NCBI GenBank assembly: GCA_031316235.1
Contig: JALDRA010000001.1
Location: forward strand, 2,400,001 to 2,432,000
DNA length: 32,000 nt
Source: Candidatus Scalindua sp.
GTDB taxonomy: Bacteria > Planctomycetota > Brocadiia > Brocadiales > Scalinduaceae
Direction of reading: 5' to 3'
The translations under genes and the position numbers were made by a program. The notes beneath the pieces were generated by a model. That model saw only the letters and a list, made by a program, of their open reading frames with translations. It had not been told where the DNA came from and did no database searches. Shown in pieces: positions 5,245-14,310 of this stretch; the stretch's first letter is position 1; each line of letters begins with the position of its first letter.

Positions 5245-5990
5245 GAGTCTTTTATATTGTAAAACAACCTGATATAGGTAAAGAGATTGATAATGCACTG
5301 GATGCCATTGAAAGGATTAATCCTTCACTGAAGGATGTTTTGCCGAAGGTCTATGCACGGCAGAATCTTGACCCAACAAATCTGGGTGGTTTAATTGACC
5401 TGGTTGGAAACATTGCCCTGGGAGATGCAAAGGCCAGAAGCGCAGATGTTCTGGGTCATGTATTTGAATATTTCCTTGGTGAATTTGCACTGGCAGAAGG
5501 TAAAACCAGGAACAGGGGGCACCTGATAAACCGCAGAACACGGAAACTGTCGGAGGAGGACATTATCTGCATATCTGAAACCTATCACAAGTGGAGGAGT
5601 GCACCCACCCCTGGCCCCTCCAGGGAGGGGAACATAATTGATGGCTCTTCCAGGGAGGGGGACATAATTTCTGGCCTGTCCCGTAAGGGGAGTATATCAG
5701 CTTCCGGGAAAAAGAAAAAATCTCTCCCCGGGGAGGGTGGCTCGGAGAGTCGGGAGGGGTACACAGACATTCCCGGTTTCTGTAACTCCGCATCGATTGA
5801 GAGGGTGAGGGAACTGGATTACGTGCTTACGCCGGGAAGATATGTTGGCCTGCCTGATGAAGAAGAAGAAGATTTTGATTTTAATGAACGGTTTACCACT
5901 TTGAAAAAAGAGTTTGAAGAGCAGTTGAAAGAGGAAGCGAGATTAAATGCACTGATTGCTGAGAATTTAAAAAAGGTGAAACTGTCATGA
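5245..5990 (+). pseudogene. hsdM: Type I R-M methylase subunit HsdM remnant: part of the N-terminal region joined directly to the C-terminal tail, with the AdoMet-MTase core missing
   Basis: KQPDIGKEIDNALDAIERINPSLKDVLPKVYAR...DVLGHVFEYFLGEFALAEGK matches the conserved HsdM N-region. It is followed at once by RNRGHLINRRTRKLSEEDI..TYHKWR...DIPGFCNSASIERVRELDYVLTPGRYVG, the HsdM C-terminus. The GGEFYTP and NPPF catalytic motifs are absent. The frame is open from 5163. Confidence 0.8.
5602..5759 (+). repeat. G-rich tandem-hairpin element, copy E1 (in frame inside the hsdM tail)
   Basis: It starts cacccacccctggcccctccagggagggg. Units of about 30-33 bp each carry a cccctcc/ggagggg palindrome. It lies between the conserved HsdM motifs TYHKWR and GYTDIPGFC and translates as PTPGPSREGNIIDGSSREGDIISGLSRKGS. 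Boundaries are approximate. Confidence 0.75.
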
Positions 5991-6360
5991 ATCATCCGCT
6001 GGCGAAAGAGAAGGATTATTCCGCATGGCTTAAGGAACTGAAAAATAAGGTTTGACTGGTTCAGATAAAAGCGGCTGTTAAAGTTAATACTGAGTTACTG
6101 CTGTTTTATTGGGAACTGGGGCGGCATATTGCAGATAAACAGAAGGATGCAAAGTGGTTTGAAGGTTTTCTGAAGCAATTAAGCATTGATTTAATGGTTG
6201 AATTTCCAGATATGAAGGATTTTTCTTTAAGCAATCTAAAATATATCAAACAGTGGTATACTTTATTAGAATTCGAAAATAGCCAACAAGCCCTTGCCTA
6301 TTTAACACAAATCCCGTGGGGACACAATATTGTCATCATATCAAAGTGTAAAAACCCCGA
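5987..6360 (+). pseudogene. DUF1016/YhcG-like nuclease, N-terminal fragment with an in-frame TGA, 3'-truncated
   Basis: MNHPLAKEKDYSAWLKELKNKV*LVQIKAAVKVNTELLLFYWELGRHIADKQ...LSIDLMVEFPDMKDFSLSNLKYIKQWY...IPWGHNIVII matches my recollection of the DUF1016 N-terminal pattern. The TGA is at 6053-6055. Homology stops at about 6360, where hsdM-tail sequence resumes in the same frame. Confidence 0.7.
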
Positions 6361-6859
6361 TGAAGACATTACCTGCATATCTGAAACTTACCACAAGTGG
6401 AGGTATGAACCCACCCTTAGCCCCTCCCAGGAGGGGAACATTACTTCTGGCTCCTTCCAGGTGGAGAACGTGTCTTCCTTCCCCTCCCAGGAGGGGAATA
6501 TATCTCTCCCTGGAAAGGGAAATAAGCCTCATACCGGGAAAAGGAAATGTTCCTGTCCAGGTAAGGGTGTGTTGGGGAGCCGAGAAAAGTCCCTCCCTTG
6601 GGAGGGTGGCTCGGAGAGACGGGAGGGGTGCACGGGTATAACGGGTTTTTGTAACTCTGTAACAATGGAAAAGGTAAGAGAACTGGATTACGTGCTTACG
6701 CCGGGAAGGTATGTTGGCCTGCCCGATGACGAAGATGATTTTGATTTTAATGAACGGTTTACCACTTTGAAAAAAGAGTTTGAAGAGCAGTTGAAAGAGG
6801 AAGCGAGGCTGAATAAACGTATTGATGAGAATTTGAAAAAAATTAAGATCAATGAATGA
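6361..6859 (+). pseudogene. hsdM: Second, paralogous copy of the HsdM C-terminal tail (5'-truncated), overlapping the hsdS start
   Basis: DITCISETYHKWR...GITGFCNSVTMEKVRELDYVLTPGRYVGLPDDEDDFDFNERFTTLKKEFEEQLKEEARLN aligns by eye with 5556-5990 in DNA and protein, apart from the inserted element. It ends in ATGAATGA, overlapping hsdS. Confidence 0.8.
6408..6628 (+). repeat. G-rich tandem-hairpin element, copy E2 (same site in the second hsdM tail, longer)
   Basis: It starts aacccacccttagcccctcccaggagggg and ends gagggtggctcggagagacgggagggg, the same right end as E1. It translates as PTLSPSQEGNITSGSFQVENVSSFPSQEGNISLPG. Boundaries are approximate. Confidence 0.75.
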
Positions 6860-7973
6860 GTGGAAAGAATTTTCAATTCTAGATTTCGCTGAAATACATA
6901 ATAATATCAGAGTTCCTCTCAGTAAAATGGAACGAATGAAAAGACAAGGTATTTTTCCTTATTACGGAGCATCTGGAATAATAGATCATGTTAATGATTT
7001 TTTGTTTGAAGGAGAGTTTGTTTTAATTTCAGAAGATGGTGAAAATTTGAGATCACGTCAAACACCAATTGCCTTTAAGGCAGATGGCTAATTTTGGGTT
7101 AATAATCATGCACATATTTTAAAAGGTAAAAAAAACTTTCACAATAACTTGCTAATTTATTACTTTCAGAATTTAGATCTAAATCCTTTTATCACTGGTG
7201 CCGTGCAGCCAAAACTTAATAAGGCTAATTTGCTTTCTATTCCAATATATCTACCTAAGGATGAAATCGAACAAAAAGCCATCGCCTCTATCCTTTCCAG
7301 TCTCGACGACAAAATAGACCTGCTCCACCGCCAGAACAAAACCCTCGAAGCTATAGCGGAAACACTCTTCAGGCAGTGGTTTGTAGAGGAAGCGGAAGAG
7401 GATTGGGAGGATGGTAAAATTCCAGATGAATTTGATTATGTAATGGGTGCCTCTCCACCAGAAGAAAGTTACAACGTGGAAGGAAAAGGTGTTCCAATGT
7501 TTCAAGGCAATGTTGATTTTGGATTTCGATTTCCTAAACAAAGGGTGTATACAAGAGACCCTAAGAGATTTGCCGAAAAATACGACACTCTTATTAGTGT
7601 TCGTGCTCCTGTAGGCGCTCAAAACATGGCTTATGTAAAATGTTGTATTGGCCGAGGGGTTGCTGCATTTAGATATAAACGCGAAGGTTCGTACTATACC
7701 TATACATATTTTAGATTAAAGTCTCTAATGGAGGAAATAAAGCAATTCAATGAGACAGGAACGGTTTTTGGTTCAATAAGCAAAGGGGATTTTGAAGTAT
7801 TTGAAATTGTTATTGCCCCAATAAACTTAGTCGATAAATTTCAAGCTGAAACAAAACCAATTGACGACAAGGTGATATCGAATTGTTTTCAAATTCTCAC
7901 GCTAGAAAAACTTAGAGATACTCTTTTACTGAAATTGATGAGTGGTGAAGTGAGAGTTGAATATGAAAATTGA
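6852..7973 (+). pseudogene. hsdS: Type I R-M specificity subunit HsdS with one in-frame TAA (7089-7091)
   Basis: ORFs 6852..7091 and 7149..7973 share one frame, and the only interruption is ...FKADG*FWVNNHAHILKG. Both target-recognition domains and the central and C-terminal conserved helices are present (LSSLDDKIDLLHRQNKTLEAIAETLFRQWFV, LEKLRDTLLLKLMSGEV). Confidence 0.85.
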
Positions 7974-9079
7974 TAATTATCAAAATGTAATTAGTTACTT
8001 AAATAAGAATAAAAGAGAAAAGCATCTCCTCCTTGGTAATGGATTTAGTATGTCTTATGATAAGAAAATATTTTCTTATAATGCTTTTAGTGACTTTATT
8101 AAAAAAACAGATAATCAATTACTACAAAAATTATTTGGCATTATAAATACTTGTAATTTCGAACTGATTATGAGCCAACTCGATGTTTTTTACCAACTTG
8201 CTGTTGAGTTTGTTGCGGATAAGGGTTTAGCAGATAAAATTACGATAGCTACGAAGTCTTTAAAAGAGAAGCTTGTTAATGCAATTTCCGAATTGCATCC
8301 TGAACAGGTTTTTAAAATACCAGCAGAACAGAGTCGCAACTGTGCTTTATTCCTTTCCAAATATGAAATGTATGGAAATTCAAAAGGGAAACGACTAATG
8401 GCTTTCTGGGAATTGGAAAGTAACCAGATAGTAGGAAAAATTATCAGTGAGTTAATTGAACATTGGCGGACTTCAAAAATGCTGTCCGATACTGAAATAA
8501 CAAAATCACAAGAAATACTTAGCAAAGATTGCCAAGTTATTGCTAACCGATTATTGGGGAGAATTCAAATTGAAACAGAAACTAATAAAAAAAGTGAAGA
8601 TGATTTCTTACAACGGAATTTTGAAAACGTCTCTTTAATAGGTTTAAATATTGAATGTGGATTAGTCAATGTTTTAGAGCAAAGAATATTTGAAATTCAA
8701 AAGAATCTTAAAAGTAGAGCTTCCCTTTCTGTTATCTTTTTATGTGGAAGTACGCTTGAAGGTATTCTCTTAGGTATCGCAACACGAAATCCAAAAAAGT
8801 TTAATCAAGCAACTGCCAGTCCGAAAGACAGAATATCAGGAAAAGTGATGAGCTTCCATGAGTGGTCATTACATAACATGATAAATGTTGCTTGCGAGGT
8901 TGGTCTTTTAGGATTAGACGTTAAGAAATTCAGTCATGCTTAGGGATTTTAGAAATTACATACATCCATATGAGCAATGGAGTTCAGGTTTTAATCCGGA
9001 TGAACATACCGCACTTATAAGTTGGCAAGTATTGAAAGCGGCCATTCATGATTTGAGTGGAAAGGGAGGCTGTGATTAA
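7957..9079 (+). pseudogene. Chimeric accessory gene: DUF4917-like N-terminus plus a HEPN-like C-terminus, with a +1 frameshift near 8938
   Basis: The N-terminus HLLLGNGFSMSYDKKIFSYNAF...CNFELIM...LKEKLVNAISELHPE resembles DUF4917 (from memory), but that family's later conserved core is missing. The ORF stops at 8943. The sequence continues in the +1 frame (8939-9079) as LRDFRNYIHPYEQWSSGFNPDEHTALISWQVLKAAIHDL, which carries an R-x(n)-H (RNxIHP) HEPN-type motif. Confidence 0.55.
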
Positions 9080-9177
9080 GAAAACAGAATATAGTCAATA
9101 GCAAATTAGCGTCCTCAAAAGACCACAGAATACTTTGTTGCCGAAATTGAAGGCCTGCAAGTGCTGGTTAAAAGAAT

Positions 9178-10158
9178 ATGGCTAAAGGGAAAAGAAACTT
9201 GTGGAGCGTGAAAAATGAACTCTTGATAAAATCAAGAGAGGCAATGCTTTGTGCAGTACAAATTTTCAACAATCCTAACATTGTCTTTAAATCAGAAAGT
9301 TTCATTGTTCTAGCAAATATTGCATGGACTTACTTGCTTCATTCTTATTATAAAAAAAGTGGTATTAACTATAGATACTACGAACAGAAGGCGCAGCGAA
9401 AAAGATATGATAAAACAAAAAGAGGGTCATTCAAATATTGGGAACTTGAAAGATGTTTGAATGATAAAAACTGTCCAATTGATAGTGTAACTATCTCCAA
9501 CTTGAAATTCCTTATAGGCCTTCGGCATGAGATTGTGCACCAAATGACAACTCGAATAGATGACTATCTGAGTGCTAGATTTCAGGCTTGCTGTTTAAAC
9601 TACAACAAATACGTTAAAAGACTCTTTGGTGAAGACTATGGTATTGACAAATACCTTTCTTTTTCTATTCAATTTTCATCAATTACGGAAGATCATGCGA
9701 AACAGCTGAAAGAATTTTCGGAATTACCCCAAAATATTGCTGCATATATAAATGATTTTGATAATTCAATATCGGAGGAGGTATTTAATAATCCACAATA
9801 TTCATACAGAGTTCTTTATGTTCCAAGGACAGCTAATAGAAAAGGGCAAGCTGATAAAGTAATAGAATTTATTCCTGCCGATTCGCCAGAGGCGCAGGGA
9901 TTAAACAAAGAGTATCGAATAATAAGGGATAGAGAGAAGCCAAAGCACTTGCCAACTGAAATAATTGATATAATGCGATCTAAGGGTTTTAAAAAATTCG
10001 GCATGCATCAGCACACCCAACTTTGGAAGCAATTTGATGCGAAAGATGAAGCCAAAGGATTTGGTGTCAGGGTTGCCAATGCTTGGTATTGGTATGATAA
10101 CTGGATAAAAGAAGTTGAAAAATATTGTGTGGAAAACAAAGAATTATATGTTGACTGA
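9178..10158 (+). CDS. Uncharacterised protein, DUF3644-like (family assignment from memory, unverified)
   Basis: Intact 326-aa ORF. The N-terminus LIKSREAMLCAVQIFNNPNIVFKSESFIVLANIAWTYLLHSYY...WELERCL...ISNLKFLIGLRHEIVHQ resembles DUF3644 proteins, which are frequent in R-M and defence loci. Confidence 0.5.
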   Translation: MAKGKRNLWSVKNELLIKSREAMLCAVQIFNNPNIVFKSESFIVLANIAWTYLLHSYYKKSGINYRYYEQKAQRKRYDKTKRGSFKYWELERCLNDKNCPIDSVTISNLKFLIGLRHEIVHQMTTRIDDYLSARFQACCLNYNKYVKRLFGEDYGIDKYLSFSIQFSSITEDHAKQLKEFSELPQNIAAYINDFDNSISEEVFNNPQYSYRVLYVPRTANRKGQADKVIEFIPADSPEAQGLNKEYRIIRDREKPKHLPTEIIDIMRSKGFKKFGMHQHTQLWKQFDAKDEAKGFGVRVANAWYWYDNWIKEVEKYCVENKELYVD

Positions 10159-10264
10159 AATCACAGAATCCGAAATAGAACAATTCGCAGTTGAATTACT
10201 CAAAAAATCAGGCTACAAACACATCTATGCCTTCAACCGCAGACTATATGGAAGCAAACGGTAA
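10151..10264 (+). pseudogene. hsdR: HsdR 5' stub (about 27 homologous codons followed by unrelated sequence and a stop)
   Basis: From the TTG at 10151, LTEITESEIEQFAVELLKKSGYKHIYA parallels the N-terminus of the hsdR at 11313 (MNKISENTIEEFTIELLEKSGYQYLFA). The start overlaps the stop of the preceding ORF (TTGACTGA), and the stub ends in TAATG at the rhuM start. Confidence 0.6.
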
Positions 10265-10736
10265 TGAATAAAAACAATCTTCCTGATAAACAATCAAATT
10301 TCTTTCTCTACACCGGAAACGACGGGAAAGTAAATATCGAAGTATTTATGCAAGATGAAACGGTTTGGCTGACGCAAAAGGCTATCGGCGAGCTTTTTGG
10401 AAAGTCAAAAGCAATAATTAGCGAGCATCTTAAGAAAATATATGCAGAAGGAGAATTGGAGATGGAGTCAACTGTACGGAAATTCCGAACAGTTCAAGCT
10501 GAAGGATCAAGGAAAGTAGAAAGAGGTTTGGAATTTTACAATCTCAACGCCATCATCTCGGTCGGCTATCGCGTAAACTCCTACCAGGCTACACAGCTTC
10601 GCATATGGATAACCAAACCCTGAAAGAATTCATCATCAAAGGAGTTGTTCTGGATGATGAACGACTCAAGCAGGGCAATCAGGTTTTTGGTAAAAACTAT
10701 TTTGACGAACTACTGGAGTGCATCCGGGAAATACGT
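10264..10736 (+). pseudogene. rhuM: RhuM-family protein, frameshifted (about 10617) and 3'-truncated
   Basis: FLYTGNDGKVNIEVFMQDETVWLTQKAIGELFGKSKAIISEHLKKIYAEGEL...YNLNAIISVGYRVNSYQATQLRIW is the RhuM signature. It continues in another frame as LKEFIIKGVVLDDERLKQG...YFDELLECIREIR, consistent with a 1-nt loss in aaa(a)ccctg. The rest of RhuM is missing. Confidence 0.75.
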
Positions 10737-10781
10737 GATCTCATATTGCCAAAACTGATGAGCAATGAGGCTGAAAATTGA
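10734..10781 (+). pseudogene. hsdS: Probable HsdS 3'-terminal tail fused to the rhuM remnant
   Basis: IRDLILPKLMSNEAEN* resembles the conserved HsdS C-terminus (compare LRDTLLLKLMSGEV at 7925-7966). The junction sits at a shared (I/L)RD. Confidence 0.45.
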
Positions 10782-11329
10782 CAAAACATAATCCAAAGAT
10801 ACACCATCGTCGGTCAATCAGATTAAAAGAATACGATTATTCACAGGAAGGGTTCTATTTTATTACGATATGCACGAATCACCATGTATGTTTATTCGGC
10901 AAAATATACGATGGTAAAATGGTATTGAATGATGCGGGAAAAATTGCAAAAGAATGTTGGTTGGATATCACGGAACATTATCCGAATACCAGATTGCATG
11001 AATGTGTGATTATGCCAAATCATGTACATGGAATACTACAAATTGTAAATAACACGGGGGTAGGGGTTCAAGATATTGAACCCCTACAACAACCCAAACA
11101 AAACCAATACCAGAAAATAATTCCGCGTTCAATCGGTTCCATGGTGCGGGGATTTAAAATTGGTGTGACAAAATGGTTTCGGAAAAATACAAACGTATAT
11201 ACGGTATGGCAACACAATTATTACGAACATATTATACGCAACGAACAATCATATTATAAAATTTCGGAATACATTATCAAGAATCCCTCTCATTGGCTAA
11301 CTGATAAATACTATGAACAAGATTTCTGA
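10778..11329 (+). mobile_element. REP-associated tyrosine transposase (RAYT; IS200/IS605 TnpA-like Y1/HUH enzyme), apparently intact
   Basis: 183-aa ORF with a TTG start. It has HHRRSIRLKEYDYSQEGFYFITICT, the HUH motif in MPNHVHGILQI, and the catalytic Tyr region WQHNYYEHIIRNE. There is no tnpB. It overlaps the hsdR ATG by 17 nt. Confidence 0.85.
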
Positions 11330-12204
11330 AAACACTATAGAAGAATTTACCATTGAGTTACTAGAAAAGTCTGGTTATCAGTACCTGTTTGCCCCTTTAA
11401 TCGCCCCAAACGGTAAAACACCTGAAAGAGAGTCATTTGAAGATGTACTGTTAATCGAACGTCTGCAAACAGCAGTTGGCAGGATTAACCCTGAAATCTC
11501 TGAGGATATCAGGGAAGATGCCATAAAACAGTTACTCAGGTTAAACTCTCCAGAGTTGATCGCCAACAACGAGGGCTTTCACCGTATGCTTACCGAAGGT
11601 ATAACGGTTAGTTACCAGAAAGACGGAAATGATCGTGGGGATTTAGTGTGGATGATTGACTTTAAAAATCCTGACAATAACGACTTTCTTGTTGTCAATC
11701 AGTTTACGGTTATCGAAAACAGTGTAAATAAACGTCCTGATATTGTTCTCTTTGTCAATGGCCTTCCATTGGTGGTTATCGAACTCAAGAATCCTGCCGA
11801 TGAGAACGCGACCGTAATATCCGCATTCAGGCAGTTTCAAACCTACAAGCAGGCAATCCCCTCCCTGTTTACCTACAATGGCTTTATGGTTATTTCAGAC
11901 GGCCTGGAGGCAAAGGCAGGTTCTCTTTCAGCTGGACTAAGCCGATTCATGGCGTGGAAGACAGCAGACGGCAAGGTTGAAGCGTCTCCCCTGATTGGCC
12001 AACTGGAAACACTCGTTAAGGGTATGCTGAATAAGAAGACACTGTTAGACCTAATACGCCATTTTATTGTATTTGAAAAGTCCAGAAAAGAGGACAAAGA
12101 GACCGGTATTATCACCATACAAACTGTGAAGAAGCTTGCTTACTATCATCAGTATTATGCTGTAAACAGGGCGGTAGAATCGACGATCAGGGCGGCGGGG
12201 TATG

Positions 12205-12399
12205 TACCCACCCCTGGCCCCTCCCAGGAGGGGAACATAATTCTTGGCCCCTCCAAGGAGAGGGGCATAATTTCCGGATCCTCCCAGGATGGGAATATAT
12301 CTCCTGGTTCGTTCCGGGTAAGCAAAGGAACAAAAAGCCAACTTCCAGGTAGTGGTGAAGTAATAAGTCCCCTCCAGGGAGGGGATACAGGGGTGGGTA
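12205..12399 (+). repeat. G-rich tandem-hairpin element, copy E3: 195 bp with perfect 12-bp terminal inverted repeats
   Basis: tacccacccctg (12205-12216) is the exact reverse complement of caggggtgggta (12388-12399). Sub-terminal hairpins are cccctcccaggagggg (12218-12233) and cccctccagggagggg (12369-12384). At 195 bp (65 codons) it reads through as PTPGPSQEGNIILGPSKERGIISGSSQDGNISPG. Confidence 0.85.
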
Positions 12400-12780
12400 G
12401 AAAAATCATCTCTTACAATCCAAAACTGAAGGAATTGGCAAAAAAGCTGAGAAAAAATATGACGCTTTCTGAGGTTCTGCTCTGGGATCAGTTAAAACAG
12501 AAGAAAATGCTCGGTTTTGATTTTGACCGACAAAGACCCATTGATGAATATATCGTTGATTTTTATTGTAAAGATTTAATGTTGGCAATTGAGATTGACG
12601 GTGAAAGTCATACCTGTGAAGAAGTTTATGAGAATGATGTTATAAGGCAGAAAAGACTCGAATCATTGGGTGTGCGTTTCTTACGTTTTCATGATCTGGA
12701 CGTAAAAAAGAATCTTAATGGTGTACTCAGGGTAATAGAACATTGGATCAAGAAACATCAAAATGATTTGGTGGGGAGAT
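12400..12780 (+). CDS. DUF559 (Vsr-like PD-(D/E)xK) endonuclease module embedded in frame in hsdR, with no start or stop codon of its own
   Basis: LAKKLRKNMTLSEVLLWDQLKQKKMLGFDFDRQRPIDEYIVDFYCKDLMLAIEIDGESH...DVIRQKRLESLGVRFLRFHDLDV...LRVIEHWI matches the DUF559 pattern (LR..T.aE..LW..L....l.g.kFrRQ.pi..yivDFyc....l.iElDG..H). It has no counterpart in HsdR proteins. Confidence 0.85.
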
Positions 12781-12950
12781 TACCCACCCCTTGCCCCTCC
12801 CGGGAGGGGAAACCCACCCCGGACCCCTCCAGGGAGGGGAACATAATTCATGGCTCTTCCAGGGAGGGGGACATAATTTCTGGTCCCACCGAGGAGGGGA
12901 ATATACCTTATCCTTTTGGGGAAGGGAGGAAGTCCCTCCCTGGGGAGGAG
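12781..12950 (+). repeat. G-rich tandem-hairpin element, copy E4 (left end duplicated, right end degenerate)
   Basis: It starts tacccaccccttgcccctcccgggagggg. A perfect 16-bp palindrome lies at 12794-12809, followed by a second left end, aacccaccccggacccctccagggagggg. The stretch 12824-12885 is nearly identical to 5609-5670 in E1. It translates as PTPCPSREGKPTPDPSREGNIIHGSSREGDIISG. The right boundary is approximate. Confidence 0.75.
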
Positions 12951-13923
12951 TCCGTAATGGAATCGCCTGCAAGCTATGGTTTACCGGGAGTCAAGGCGCA
13001 GCCTGTCGGTGACCGAAAGGGTGGTGTTGTATGGCATACGCAGGGGAGCGGGAAATCCCTGTCAATGGTTTTCTATACAGGAAAGATTGTTCTTGCTTTA
13101 GATAATCCCACCATTCTGGTTATTACTGACAGGAATGATCTGGACGACCAGTTATTTGATACCTTTGCGGCATCGAAACAGCTTCTCAGGCAAGAGCCTG
13201 TACAGGCAGAGGACAGAGAGCAATTGAAGGATCTTCTCAAAGTGGCATCGGGTGGTGTTGTCTTTACAACCATTCAGAAATTTCAACCTGAAGAAGGAAA
13301 TGTGTACGAGCAGCTCTCCGATAGAAAAAACATAATTGTCATAGTTGATGAGGCACATCGTACTCAGTACGGGTTTAAGGCCAAAACGATAGATGAAAAG
13401 GATGATAAAGGAAATGTAGTCGGCAAGAAAATTGTATACGGATTTGCGAAATATATGCGTGATGCCCTGCCAAACGCAACGTATCTTGGATTTACGGGTA
13501 CGCCGATAGAAAGCACAGATGTTAACACACCCGCTGTATTTGGTAATTATGTTGATATTTACGATATTTTACAGGCGGTAGATGACGGCGCAACCGTAAG
13601 GATTTTTTACGAAAGCAGGCTGGCGAAGATAAAGCTCAGTGAAGAGGGGAAAAAACTTATTGCGGATCTTGATGAAGTGCTTGAACATGATGAATTAACC
13701 CAGACCCAGAAGGCAAAAGCAAAGTGGACACAACTGGAAGCATTAATCGGCAGTGAAGACAGGGTTAAGCAGGTGGCGCAGGATATTATCACACATTTCG
13801 AGCTGAGGAATAATCCCGGAGGCGGGGGGCTTGATGGTAAGGCAATGGTTGTGGCCATGTCGCGCCGTATTGCTGCCGATTTGTATAAGGGAATCATTAA
13901 TATTCGACCACAATGGCACAGCT

Positions 13924-14310
13924 TTTTCTGATAGTGGAGGAAAGGGTGACCCTGCAATTGCCCAGGAAAAAGCTGTCAAAATGATGCTGGAAAAACTTGA
14001 AGTGGTTTCGCAGATGTTTCATGGATTTGCCTATGAAGATTATTTTCAGTCAGACACTTCAGCAAAGCTATCCCTTATTCTTGCTGCAGAAGAACATATT
14101 CTGGGAATGGACAACGGGAGAAAGAGATATATTGATGAAGTAACCGCTCTGCCTCAGGTCTTTTCCATAGCGATACCCCATGAACAGGCAATGGACGTAA
14201 AAGATGAATTATCATTCTTTCAGGCGGTTAAATCACGATTAGCAAAGTTTGACAGCACAGGTTCAGGCAGGACCGACGAGGAAATAGAGACAGTAATACC
14301 TTACGAATAA
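13924..14310 (+). pseudogene. hsdR: HsdR C-terminal-domain fragment (different frame, 3'-truncated)
   Basis: SGGKGDPAIAQEKAVKMMLEKLEVVSQMFHGFAYEDYF...LILAAEEHILGMDNGRKRYIDEVTAL...ELSFFQAVKSRLAKF matches the region downstream of the HsdR helicase (DUF3387-type). The first roughly 30 codons of ORF 13831..14310 are an out-of-frame overlap, not homologous sequence. Confidence 0.7.

Follow-up and report, generated by a model that had tools for sequence, protein, structure and literature searches.

How does a nuclease module that has neither a start nor a stop codon of its own come to lie in the middle of a restriction gene, and is it at home there? The question is raised by a window of 32,000 nucleotides from Candidatus Scalindua sp. 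(the whole stretch of DNA that was analysed; positions are window coordinates unless a compared locus is named, and L and P numbers are labels of the compared loci and proteins). In this window the gene hsdR of a Type I restriction-modification (R-M) operon is interrupted in frame by a DUF559 nuclease module that stands between two arrays of GC-rich hairpins, E3 and E4. A first, sequence-only reading had taken the block to be either a selfish nuclease tolerated as a loop insertion or an autonomous form of the hairpin-element family. We propose, with a probability of roughly 0.6, that the block is a composite insertion, a mobile and selfish nuclease cassette which hsdR tolerates in an inter-domain linker. 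Its core would be a cassette of ~0.45 kb, consisting of the DUF559 gene and the inverted units on either side of it, nested among E3 and E4, which resemble arrays of repetitive extragenic palindromic (REP) sequences.

The insert and its nuclease

Aligned with orthologues that have a short native linker, the homology to HsdR runs to ...RAAGY (codon Y 12201-12203) and restarts at (V)MESPASYG (V = 12954), about 20 codons ahead of helicase motif I (TQGSGKS). In the orthologues with an ordinary linker this region reads ...RAAGY-(about 12 variable residues)-MESPxSYG (P0144, P0198, P0213, P0235). What lies between, 12204-12950/53 or about 747 bp and about 249 codons, separates the nuclease domain from the helicase domain, is free of stop codons and keeps the hsdR frame; the open reading frame (ORF) 11313-13931 (872 aa) continues uninterrupted across the whole insert. 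The analysis (insert at 12204-12950) bore out almost to the base the borders and the three-part description given in the sequence-only reading, including the 195 bp of E3 with their perfect terminal inverted repeats (TIRs), the equal orientation of E3 and E4, which belong to one direct-repeat family, and the open frame. The same three-part insert is found at the same codon in three independent assemblies (L001 from a Brocadiaceae, L002, and L003 from Scalindua RBC_AMX3). Since the architecture recurs in these three further assemblies, an assembly chimera is excluded, and the arrangement is not peculiar to the window genome.

The arrays are built from a unit that consists of a ACCCACCCC head and a GC hairpin, CCCCTCC-NN-GGAGGGG, with the consensus ACCCACCCC-T-N-N-CCCCTCC-NN-GGAGGGG, in which the 9-nt head is near-invariant and the base preceding it is not conserved. 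E3 begins with a forward head and hairpin (12205-12237), continues with more hairpins about 30 nt apart and ends on the right with an inverted unit (hairpins at 12218, 12248 and 12369); its ends pair as a stem of ~33 bp (minimum free energy -99.8 kcal/mol, z = -5.8 vs shuffles). Being short, having perfect 12-nt TIRs that extend to about 33 nt, and having copies (E1, E2 and E4) in the window, E3 shares these traits with the MITEs (miniature transposable elements with inverted repeats). The right arm of E3 doubles as the left arm of the cassette. The left unit, CCCCTCCAGGGAGGGG-ATACA-GGGGTGGGTA (12369-12399), and the right unit, TACCCACCCC-TTG-CCCCTCCCGGGAGGGG (12781-12809), both have their heads toward the ORF and their hairpins outward, and an 11-nt perfect inverted repeat is shared by the left unit and 12781-12791. 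The left unit also holds GGAGG (12378-12382) and an in-frame GTG (12393-12395) that lies 8-10 nt downstream of GGAGG(GG), a Shine-Dalgarno-GTG pair that may be usable for independent initiation of the nuclease.

The window contains 11 copies of the hairpin motif CCCCTCCNNGGAGGGG where 0.04 are expected, and 4 of the head motif where 0.06 are, all within E1-E4. From the head at 12812 onward E4 shares 69/72 bases (96 %) with E1, which lies in an hsdM fragment 7 kb away, and the tails of E2 and E1 are 88 % identical; the orthologous E4 arrays of sister genomes are only 77-80 % identical. Either arrays have been copied between sites or they have been homogenised by gene conversion. A promoter scan around the insert gave nothing above shuffled expectation, and the terminator-like hits around it are the hairpins themselves, with nothing further. 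A pairing of E3 with E4 in the RNA, which would loop out DUF559, was considered and is unsupported, as the minimum free energy structure folds each array upon itself.

The nuclease belongs to Pfam family PF04480 (E 1e-27 to 2e-28; 96-99 bits vs a cut-off of 20.6; profile positions 2-106 of 109). The D/E/D/H positions of IVDF...EIDGESH, invariant or nearly so in family alignments, are all present, as had been predicted from the sequence; going by what is known of the fold, we take them to be the catalytic residues. Profile matches by sequence in the PDB were 3hrl (E 9e-21) and 3r3p (E 0.003). The AlphaFold2 model has a Vsr-like alpha/beta fold for the nuclease core at a predicted local distance difference test score (pLDDT) of 92-98, and no secondary structure for the arrays, at a pLDDT of 45-56 (E3) and 52-60 (E4). 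With the model of the core Foldseek retrieved 3hrl (TM score 0.84), the catalytic domain of I-Bth0305I (3r3p, 0.81) and 1vsr (0.48). PADLOC and PHROGs yielded only a weak generic nuclease match and a family of unknown function; in collections of plasmids and phages the relatives were all distant (<=43 % identity), with no sign of a vehicle. The cassette is no insertion sequence by its content, its sole ORF being this 127-aa PD-(D/E)XK nuclease and not a recognised transposase.

In comparisons among the window, L001, L002 and L003 the ratio dN/dS was 0.07-0.17 for the DUF559 core and 0.04-0.12 for the HsdR flanks, and 0.6-1.2 for E3 and 0.5-0.6 for E4. The embedded nuclease is under purifying selection, whereas the arrays are not and evolve neutrally. 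The dS of DUF559, 0.37-0.49 (1.35 vs L002), is below that of the host flanks, 0.53-1.0 (saturated vs L002). With 126 codons only, this difference is weakly compatible with a later exchange of the insert between alleles.

Relatives in several phyla and in other HsdR and HsdM proteins

A search of one-genome-per-species bacterial contigs with a profile of the core retrieved at least 548 relatives, of which the best 80 (60-78 % protein identity) were taken; the locus set comprises 83 DUF559 loci in total and 917 kb of sequence, in which units were counted by a strict pattern. The best 80 come from Bacteroidota (many families), anammox Planctomycetota, Cyanobacteria, Ignavibacteria, Nitrospirota, Zixibacteria, Marinimicrobia, Lentisphaeria, Binatia and one Comamonadaceae metagenome-assembled genome. 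The usual form is a free-standing mini-gene of ~0.5 kb between inverted copies of one ~30-bp unit. That DUF559 ORFs elsewhere carry similar G-rich hairpin flanks had been an impression of the sequence-only reading, and it proved right: an inverted unit lies upstream of DUF559 in 51 of the 83 loci, downstream in 63 and on both sides in 44. Within 300 bp of DUF559 there are 3.1 hairpins/kb vs 0.076/kb in the remaining ~840 kb, which is an enrichment of about 40-fold.

An ATG of their own within 14 codons of the core is present in 67/83 copies and in none of the five HsdR-embedded ones. There is no stop before the right-hand head at 59 of 75 loci; this head stands in the Pro-Thr-Pro frame of the ORF at 55 of the 75, and at 40 the ORF reads fully through the unit. 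The window copy does lack both ATG and stop, as first described, but the absent stop is no peculiarity of it; it is the norm of the family. As a family trait the missing stop explains the many fusions: 12/83 loci run into the downstream gene (CysQ six, a tRNA m6A methyltransferase two, the rest IspG-like and others) and 6/83 are internal to a larger ORF, so that about 22 % of the loci are fused. Longer than 250 aa are 19 of the 120 best protein hits (16 %) and 18 of the 150 best cluster representatives at 50 % identity; DUF559 as a whole comprises 19,969 clusters at 50 % identity with E <= 0.001.

At the loci L004, L007, L009, L013, L018 and L019 (Cyclobacteriaceae, Ekhidna, Reichenbachiella) DUF559 lies upstream of CysQ via a forward unit, a spacer and an inverted unit, and the inverted unit (…PSSEGLGVG) stops 2-6 codons ahead of the conserved CysQ N-terminus. 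The GGAGG and the in-frame GTG of the unit may here provide the ribosome-binding site and start of CysQ, which would make the unit a portable translation-initiation module. Comparison of the two DUF559 copies of one Ignavibacteria genome (L028/L029) places the right end of the element about 15 nt beyond the hairpin; at the left end other repeats obscure the border. Upstream of both copies lies a different ~60-nt tandem/dispersed repeat (5580-5840 in L028/L029), which is also found downstream of one.

Among the 120 best HsdR relatives, 38 carry PF04480; their sources are Brocadiaceae, Chitinophagales, Calditrichaceae and one Halobacteriota archaeon. The sequence-only reading would have given up the insertion had HsdR orthologues natively contained such a domain at this position. 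Orthologues with the domain there are, but we read them as the outcome of recurrent insertion and not as carriers of a native domain, on the grounds that their DUF559s fall into at least five lineages and occupy at least two sites, and that free-standing relatives are closer than some embedded ones. The same HsdR linker is occupied by type A, to which the window copy belongs, and by type B (NSKNYFxLPYNPKLKERARELRQAGN...); type C (HYRGGM...RRQHQIGHYIVDFYCHSE...) is located about 25 residues upstream of the type A/B site, after FIVFE(R/K). Type A falls into three sublineages of differing flank architecture, which are mutually 58-65 % identical vs 72-78 % for their HsdR hosts, and the window copy has closer kin among free-standing copies from Bacteroidota (up to 78 %) than in the other embedded type A sublineages. 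Free-standing relatives of type C occur in Acidobacteriota, Armatimonadota, Methylococcus and Chloroflexi, and type C is also embedded in HsdM at the exact position of E1 and E2 (P0251, P0282), at a second HsdM site (P0329, P0341) and at a third HsdR site (P0245).

HsdR orthologues with 83-91 % identity have an empty linker or a solo hairpin unit only. At the site of the window insert every stage is represented, from an empty linker through a degenerate single unit (L085), one unit (L084), two units (Kuenenia L083) and stubs that contain units (P0135, P0170, P0204) to full cassettes. Linkers that are truly empty appeared in protein sequences only, L085 (P0130, twin of P0129, the best of the empty-site orthologues) having a degenerate unit. 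Judged by these sequences, the HsdR-embedded DUF559s are polyphyletic, and we count at least five independent insertions into the HsdR family at two or more sites.

Other, unrelated GC-rich palindromic insertions are translated in frame in L002 (1516-3210, hsdM), L083 (1-901), P0123, P0128, P0162, P0169, P0216, P0235 and P0240, among them FPSSGGV..RGG (in as many as four tandem copies ahead of FPYEDYF), SLSPSGRDGREGG, SSPSGRGGGEG at the E1/E2 site of hsdM and SVGAGLRACP after FEKSK. The proteins of this HsdR/HsdM family appear to serve generally as sinks for palindromic repeats that keep the frame. In P0126, an HsdR of 1405 aa, the right-hand array has grown to ~13 tandem copies of a ~14-residue repeat (ASQEGNLTFQEGDT), which lengthens an HsdR that is in other respects intact by about 170 residues; the length of the array is highly plastic, and this is apparently tolerated.

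The decayed host operon

The region 5.3-14.3 kb of the window (5340-14310) is a decayed Type I R-M operon, composed of two hsdM fragments, an N-terminal piece of DUF1016, a partial hsdS, a RhuM fragment, an ORF resembling the REP-associated tyrosine transposases (RAYTs), and hsdR (Table 1). Intact versions of the operon exist in Kuenenia (L083) and on a Brocadiaceae-like contig of the Joint Genome Institute (JGI; L002). The first hsdM fragment (5340-5990) covers only the last 35 positions of the N6_Mtase profile, and hsdM is without its catalytic core. Its 3' end has been duplicated together with the hairpin element, the second copy being joined to the DUF1016 fragment (6194-6859). RhuM is reduced to 50/252 profile positions. 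Several of the junctions are still open reading frames.

Table 1. Coordinates of the insert, the hairpin arrays and the adjoining genes in the window
Feature	Position	Strand	Remarks
E1, solo hairpin array	5602..5764	+	in frame in hsdM fragment, between ...ISETYHKWRS and ...IPGFCNS
E2, solo hairpin array	6408..6634	+	in frame; same hsdM position as E1, in duplicated chimeric hsdM 3' fragment
RAYT-like ORF, 183 aa	10778..11329	+	IS200/Y1; HUH motif HVH (MPNHVHGIL); overlaps hsdR start
hsdR 5' part	11313..12203	+	HSDR_N nuclease domain and linker to ...RAAGY; Pfam HSDR_N E 1.4e-53
E3, palindromic hairpin-array element, 195 bp	12205..12399	+	perfect 12-nt TIRs TACCCACCCCTG/CAGGGGTGGGTA
Left inverted unit of cassette	12366..12399	+	hairpin 12369-12384, then GGGGTGGGTA 12390-12399
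DUF559/Vsr-like PD-(D/E)XK nuclease core, 127 aa	12399..12779	+	RKIISYNP...DLVGR; without ATG, without stop
Right inverted unit of cassette	12781..12813	+	TACCCACCCC and hairpin 12794-12809; read as LPTPCPSREG
E4, hairpin array	12781..12950	+	E3 orientation; second head 12812; hairpins 12794, 12824, 12854, 12884; truncated tail KSLPGEE
hsdR helicase part	12951..13931	+	SWI2_SNF2 E 1.3e-74; ends prematurely at 13931
hsdR C-terminal remnant, out of frame	13925..14310	+	T1RH-like_C profile positions 1-122 of 329 only; aligns with P0129 residues 727-869

The hsdR of the window is 84 % identical to P0122 overall and about 91 % over the compared HsdR flanks. Its helicase part is 91 % identical to residues 309-631 of the orthologue P0129 and broken beyond: residues 632-~742, with helicase motifs IV-VI, are absent, the frame shifts at 13931, the homology resumes out of frame up to residue 869, and the last ~210 residues (870-1081) are gone, ribD coming next. 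Of the parts of a complete HsdR (HSDR_N, SF2 motifs I-VI and the C-terminal domain in one ORF) the ORF keeps HSDR_N and the N-terminal part of the helicase region with motif I. From its sequence the gene is evidently a pseudogene of a true HsdR, with an internal deletion and a 3' truncation. As hsdR is dead, its preserved frame is a relic and not under present selection in the window genome. The pseudogene, the Shine-Dalgarno-GTG pair in the left repeat and the RAYT-like gene upstream had escaped the sequence-only reading, whose verdict that the nuclease can be made only as an internal domain of HsdR was too strong, given a truncated hsdR and an in-frame start site in the repeat.

Two of the sister loci have defects of their own. 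In L001 a run of G (12522-12547, …NDPGGGG) divides hsdR into two ORFs that overlap, which is due either to a sequencing error or to a tract prone to slippage; at about 13813-13830 the window has the same GGGGG-encoding stretch (…NNPGGGGL) in frame. In L003 (6382-6560) a different frame is used for the array that follows DUF559 (PLRGG/PLQGG), with a stop 14 codons after the nuclease; that genome would make at most a fusion of the HsdR N-terminus with DUF559.

Readings of the block and its likeness to known systems

If the block is a mobile cassette, its way of life may be pictured as follows. The nuclease would recognise or cleave the palindromic head/hairpin units, and repair of the break from an occupied copy would spread the cassette between unit-bearing sites, a homing-like gene conversion with the flanking units as half-sites or homology arms. 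A copy that lands in an insertion-tolerant linker would persist when the host frame stays open; two of the unit's three frames are free of stops, and the arrays repeat every 30 nt, a multiple of 3. Such a gene-borne copy would become a folded extra domain between unstructured Gly/Pro/Ser/Glu linkers, while the arrays would drift at the protein level and yet be homogenised within the genome. The window copy would be old: it would have entered an ancestral Brocadiales hsdR and been inherited vertically, until hsdR died in the window genome. If the direct units at 12205 and 12781 recombined, the cassette would be lost and a solo array would remain, comparable to E1, E2 or that at the Kuenenia site. 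The unoccupied site is predicted to consist of abutted heads. A search of the JGI metagenome collection with GGAGGGG-N(1-6)-GGGGTGGGT-N(0-8)-ACCCACCCC gave six stretches, and on the ~190-kb contigs L089/L091 hairpin-head and head-hairpin abut as a perfect palindrome with a 2-nt centre.

The polyphyly, the empty or solo orthologues, the neutral unstructured arrays and the constrained, folded nuclease all suit, and support well, a selfish nuclease tolerated as a loop insertion, as was surmised at the outset. The related fold, the polyphyletic site occupancy, the dS of DUF559 below that of the host and the rare abutted-unit palindromes may be indirect hints of a homing endonuclease. Several points weigh against a mobile cassette. 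We infer both the cutting of the units and mobility through DUF559 from sequence, by which a nuclease-driven mechanism is plausible, and the 127-aa nuclease is without strand-transfer activity of its own. The two DUF559 copies of the Ignavibacteria genome are 85 % identical and give no sign of recent transposition. No target-site duplication is definable at the insert, the linker being variable. Abutted-head palindromes are rare, the six being the only exact matches in the whole metagenome collection, and none lies within 6 kb of the 80 cassettes (917 kb scanned). The hairpin flanks of type C cassettes are arranged differently, so that the picture of half-sites is not general. A domain of use to the host would explain equally well the strong purifying selection and the large number of HsdR-DUF559 proteins that are intact and full-length, and in three Brocadiales loci a RAYT-like gene adjoins hsdR.

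The last two points lead to the alternatives. DUF559 could be an exapted accessory domain, a second nuclease module of this HsdR clade that serves, e.g., in processing or nicking during restriction, with the arrays as leftover linkers. This would agree with a dN/dS as low as that of host domains and with the many full-length HsdRs (1210-1405 aa, all helicase motifs) that carry DUF559 in intact operons such as L002, and convergent selection of independent acquisitions at inter-domain linkers is conceivable. The closest relatives, however, stand free as mini-genes in other phyla and have the same inverted units, the cassettes are joined to enzymes of unrelated kinds as well (CysQ, TrmN6-like, IspG, HsdM), HsdRs with 83-91 % identity do without DUF559, and the nuclease ORF is intact although hsdR is dead, in L003 with the hsdR frame broken directly after DUF559. 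Exaptation accounts for the selection, not for the flanks, the free-standing majority and the unrelated hosts, and we regard it as unlikely. An equally improbable alternative is that the arrays are repeats of the REP/REPIN type mobilised in trans by a RAYT-like Y1 transposase, with DUF559 as an unrelated neighbour or passenger. The RAYT-like ORF is located directly upstream of hsdR in the window, in Kuenenia (L083, 7496-8017) and in the Brocadiaceae locus L001 (9496-10017), all of which carry arrays, L083 even without DUF559, and E3 with its two inverted units and a spacer is REPIN-like. Lying 0.9 kb upstream of the insert, this gene is an alternative mobiliser, beside DUF559 the second candidate for the enzyme cognate to the arrays, and leaves the autonomy that had been proposed for the hairpin-element family unproven. 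But it scores under the cut-off of NCBIfam REP_Tyr_transpos (E 2.5e-13, 50 bits vs 80), matches TnpA-REP 4er8 weakly, is not flanked by hairpin units, and is not found near the arrays and DUF559 of L002 nor within 6 kb at any of the 80 other DUF559 loci, most of which have units fixed in inverted orientation around DUF559. It is DUF559 that occupies between the units the position of the RAYT in REP systems, and the units lack the GTAG/CGTC tags of the known REP superfamilies (PMC3733652). A system driven by a RAYT would account for the arrays, but not for the units that bracket DUF559 at 80 loci with no Y1 gene inside 6 kb. That a Y1 transposase-like gene should be fixed in a Type I R-M operon is odd in itself.

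The inverted repeats of about 30 bp around the DUF559 segment could also form an invertible switch that flips the 0.4-kb segment and thereby toggles hsdR or the nuclease; antisense DUF559 would put stops into hsdR. A genome-wide model based on inverted repeats found 'DUF559 domain-containing protein' 14-fold enriched among predicted programmed-inversion targets (PMC9881135, Table 1), an enrichment that is a model prediction and that flanking repeats alone would yield. The ORFs scanned at the window locus include no identified invertase gene, and the embedded copies seen are all sense, antisense copies being such as would escape the protein searches used; we give a switch very little chance. 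Least credible of all is an intein- or intron-like element whose removal from protein or mRNA restores HsdR. The in-frame position beside a catalytic motif of a conserved gene and the fold shared with the EDxHD homing endonucleases of introns and inteins (PMC3239194; PMC2677866) would suit it, but the flanks are repeat arrays of variable length, the Pfam scan contains no Hint/intein domain, the junctions GY|VPTP and GEE|SVME have no Cys/Ser/Thr at +1 and no His-Asn, and no Rfam family, group I/II introns and ribozymes included, was detected in the 32 kb at gathering thresholds. As far as sequence evidence goes, this possibility is excluded.

Returning to the mobile cassette, we think it possible, at somewhat less than even odds, that DUF559 cassettes constitute an unrecognised class of compact (~0.5 kb) mobile elements with read-through ends, which spread across phyla by nuclease-triggered gene conversion. 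If a major branch of DUF559 is such a cassette tied to a palindromic repeat, a large family of unknown function would obtain a testable one, with the conserved ~30-bp unit as candidate recognition site of the small nuclease, and the multi-domain annotations HsdR/Vsr, CysQ/DUF559 and methyltransferase/DUF559 would be explained. Besides introns and inteins, a homing-type nuclease would have a third means of residing within essential or conserved genes: insertion would give tolerated fusion proteins rather than knock-outs, and selfish DNA in genes would need only frame-neutral disordered linkers, neither RNA nor protein splicing. Linker-cushioned, frame-preserving insertion is a natural source of new domain architectures, and the inter-domain linkers of Type I R-M subunits are hotspots at which 40-330 extra residues are tolerated, a property of use in engineering. 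A published description of the arrangement was not found in the full-text literature, a search that left most subscription journals uncovered, so that its absence is unproven; the architectures are already visible in public annotation, e.g., as 'R subunit/very-short-patch-repair endonuclease' at JGI. Apparently new is the combination of a Vsr-fold nuclease, REP-like inverted units, a read-through design and a translated linker insertion without splicing.

Of the known systems, REP/REPIN-RAYT (PMC3116915, PMC3337134, PMC3733652) is similar in having a small enzyme gene between inverted short GC-rich palindromic units, which also occur elsewhere as solo copies, doublets and arrays. It differs in its enzyme, an HUH/Y1 transposase in place of a Vsr-like PD-(D/E)XK nuclease, and in its unit, the cassette having the ACCCACCCC head instead of the GTAG/CGTC tag; furthermore the cassette units and gene are found inside coding regions in frame and are conserved across phyla, whereas REPIN-RAYT systems, according to the literature on REPINs, pass down mainly by vertical inheritance.

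The Rickettsia palindromic elements and intragenic MITEs (PMC10969869) are palindromic repeats of about 100-250 bp that are translated in frame in unrelated genes, as are E1-E4. A nuclease gene has not been reported in them, whereas here a full nuclease domain accompanies the repeats, and their host range is one genus vs several phyla for the cassette.

With the EDxHD/I-Bth0305I homing endonucleases of group I introns, inteins and 'fractured genes' (PMC3239194, PMC2677866) the cassette has in common the nuclease fold and the location of the gene in conserved genes near catalytic motifs. It contains no ribozyme or intein, is translated through and cushioned by repeat-encoded linkers, and has hairpin repeats instead of host exon as flanks; target cleavage is in its case putative.

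To Vsr and the housekeeping DUF559 proteins (PDB 1vsr/1cw0, 3hrl) the nuclease is linked by superfamily and catalytic architecture. Vsr proper is distant (TM 0.48), and no partner cytosine methyltransferase was identified beside the nuclease at the window locus. Databases label DUF559 proteins 'very-short-patch-repair endonuclease'; the patchy presence, the inverted-repeat flanks and the fusions speak for mobility rather than for a function in repair.

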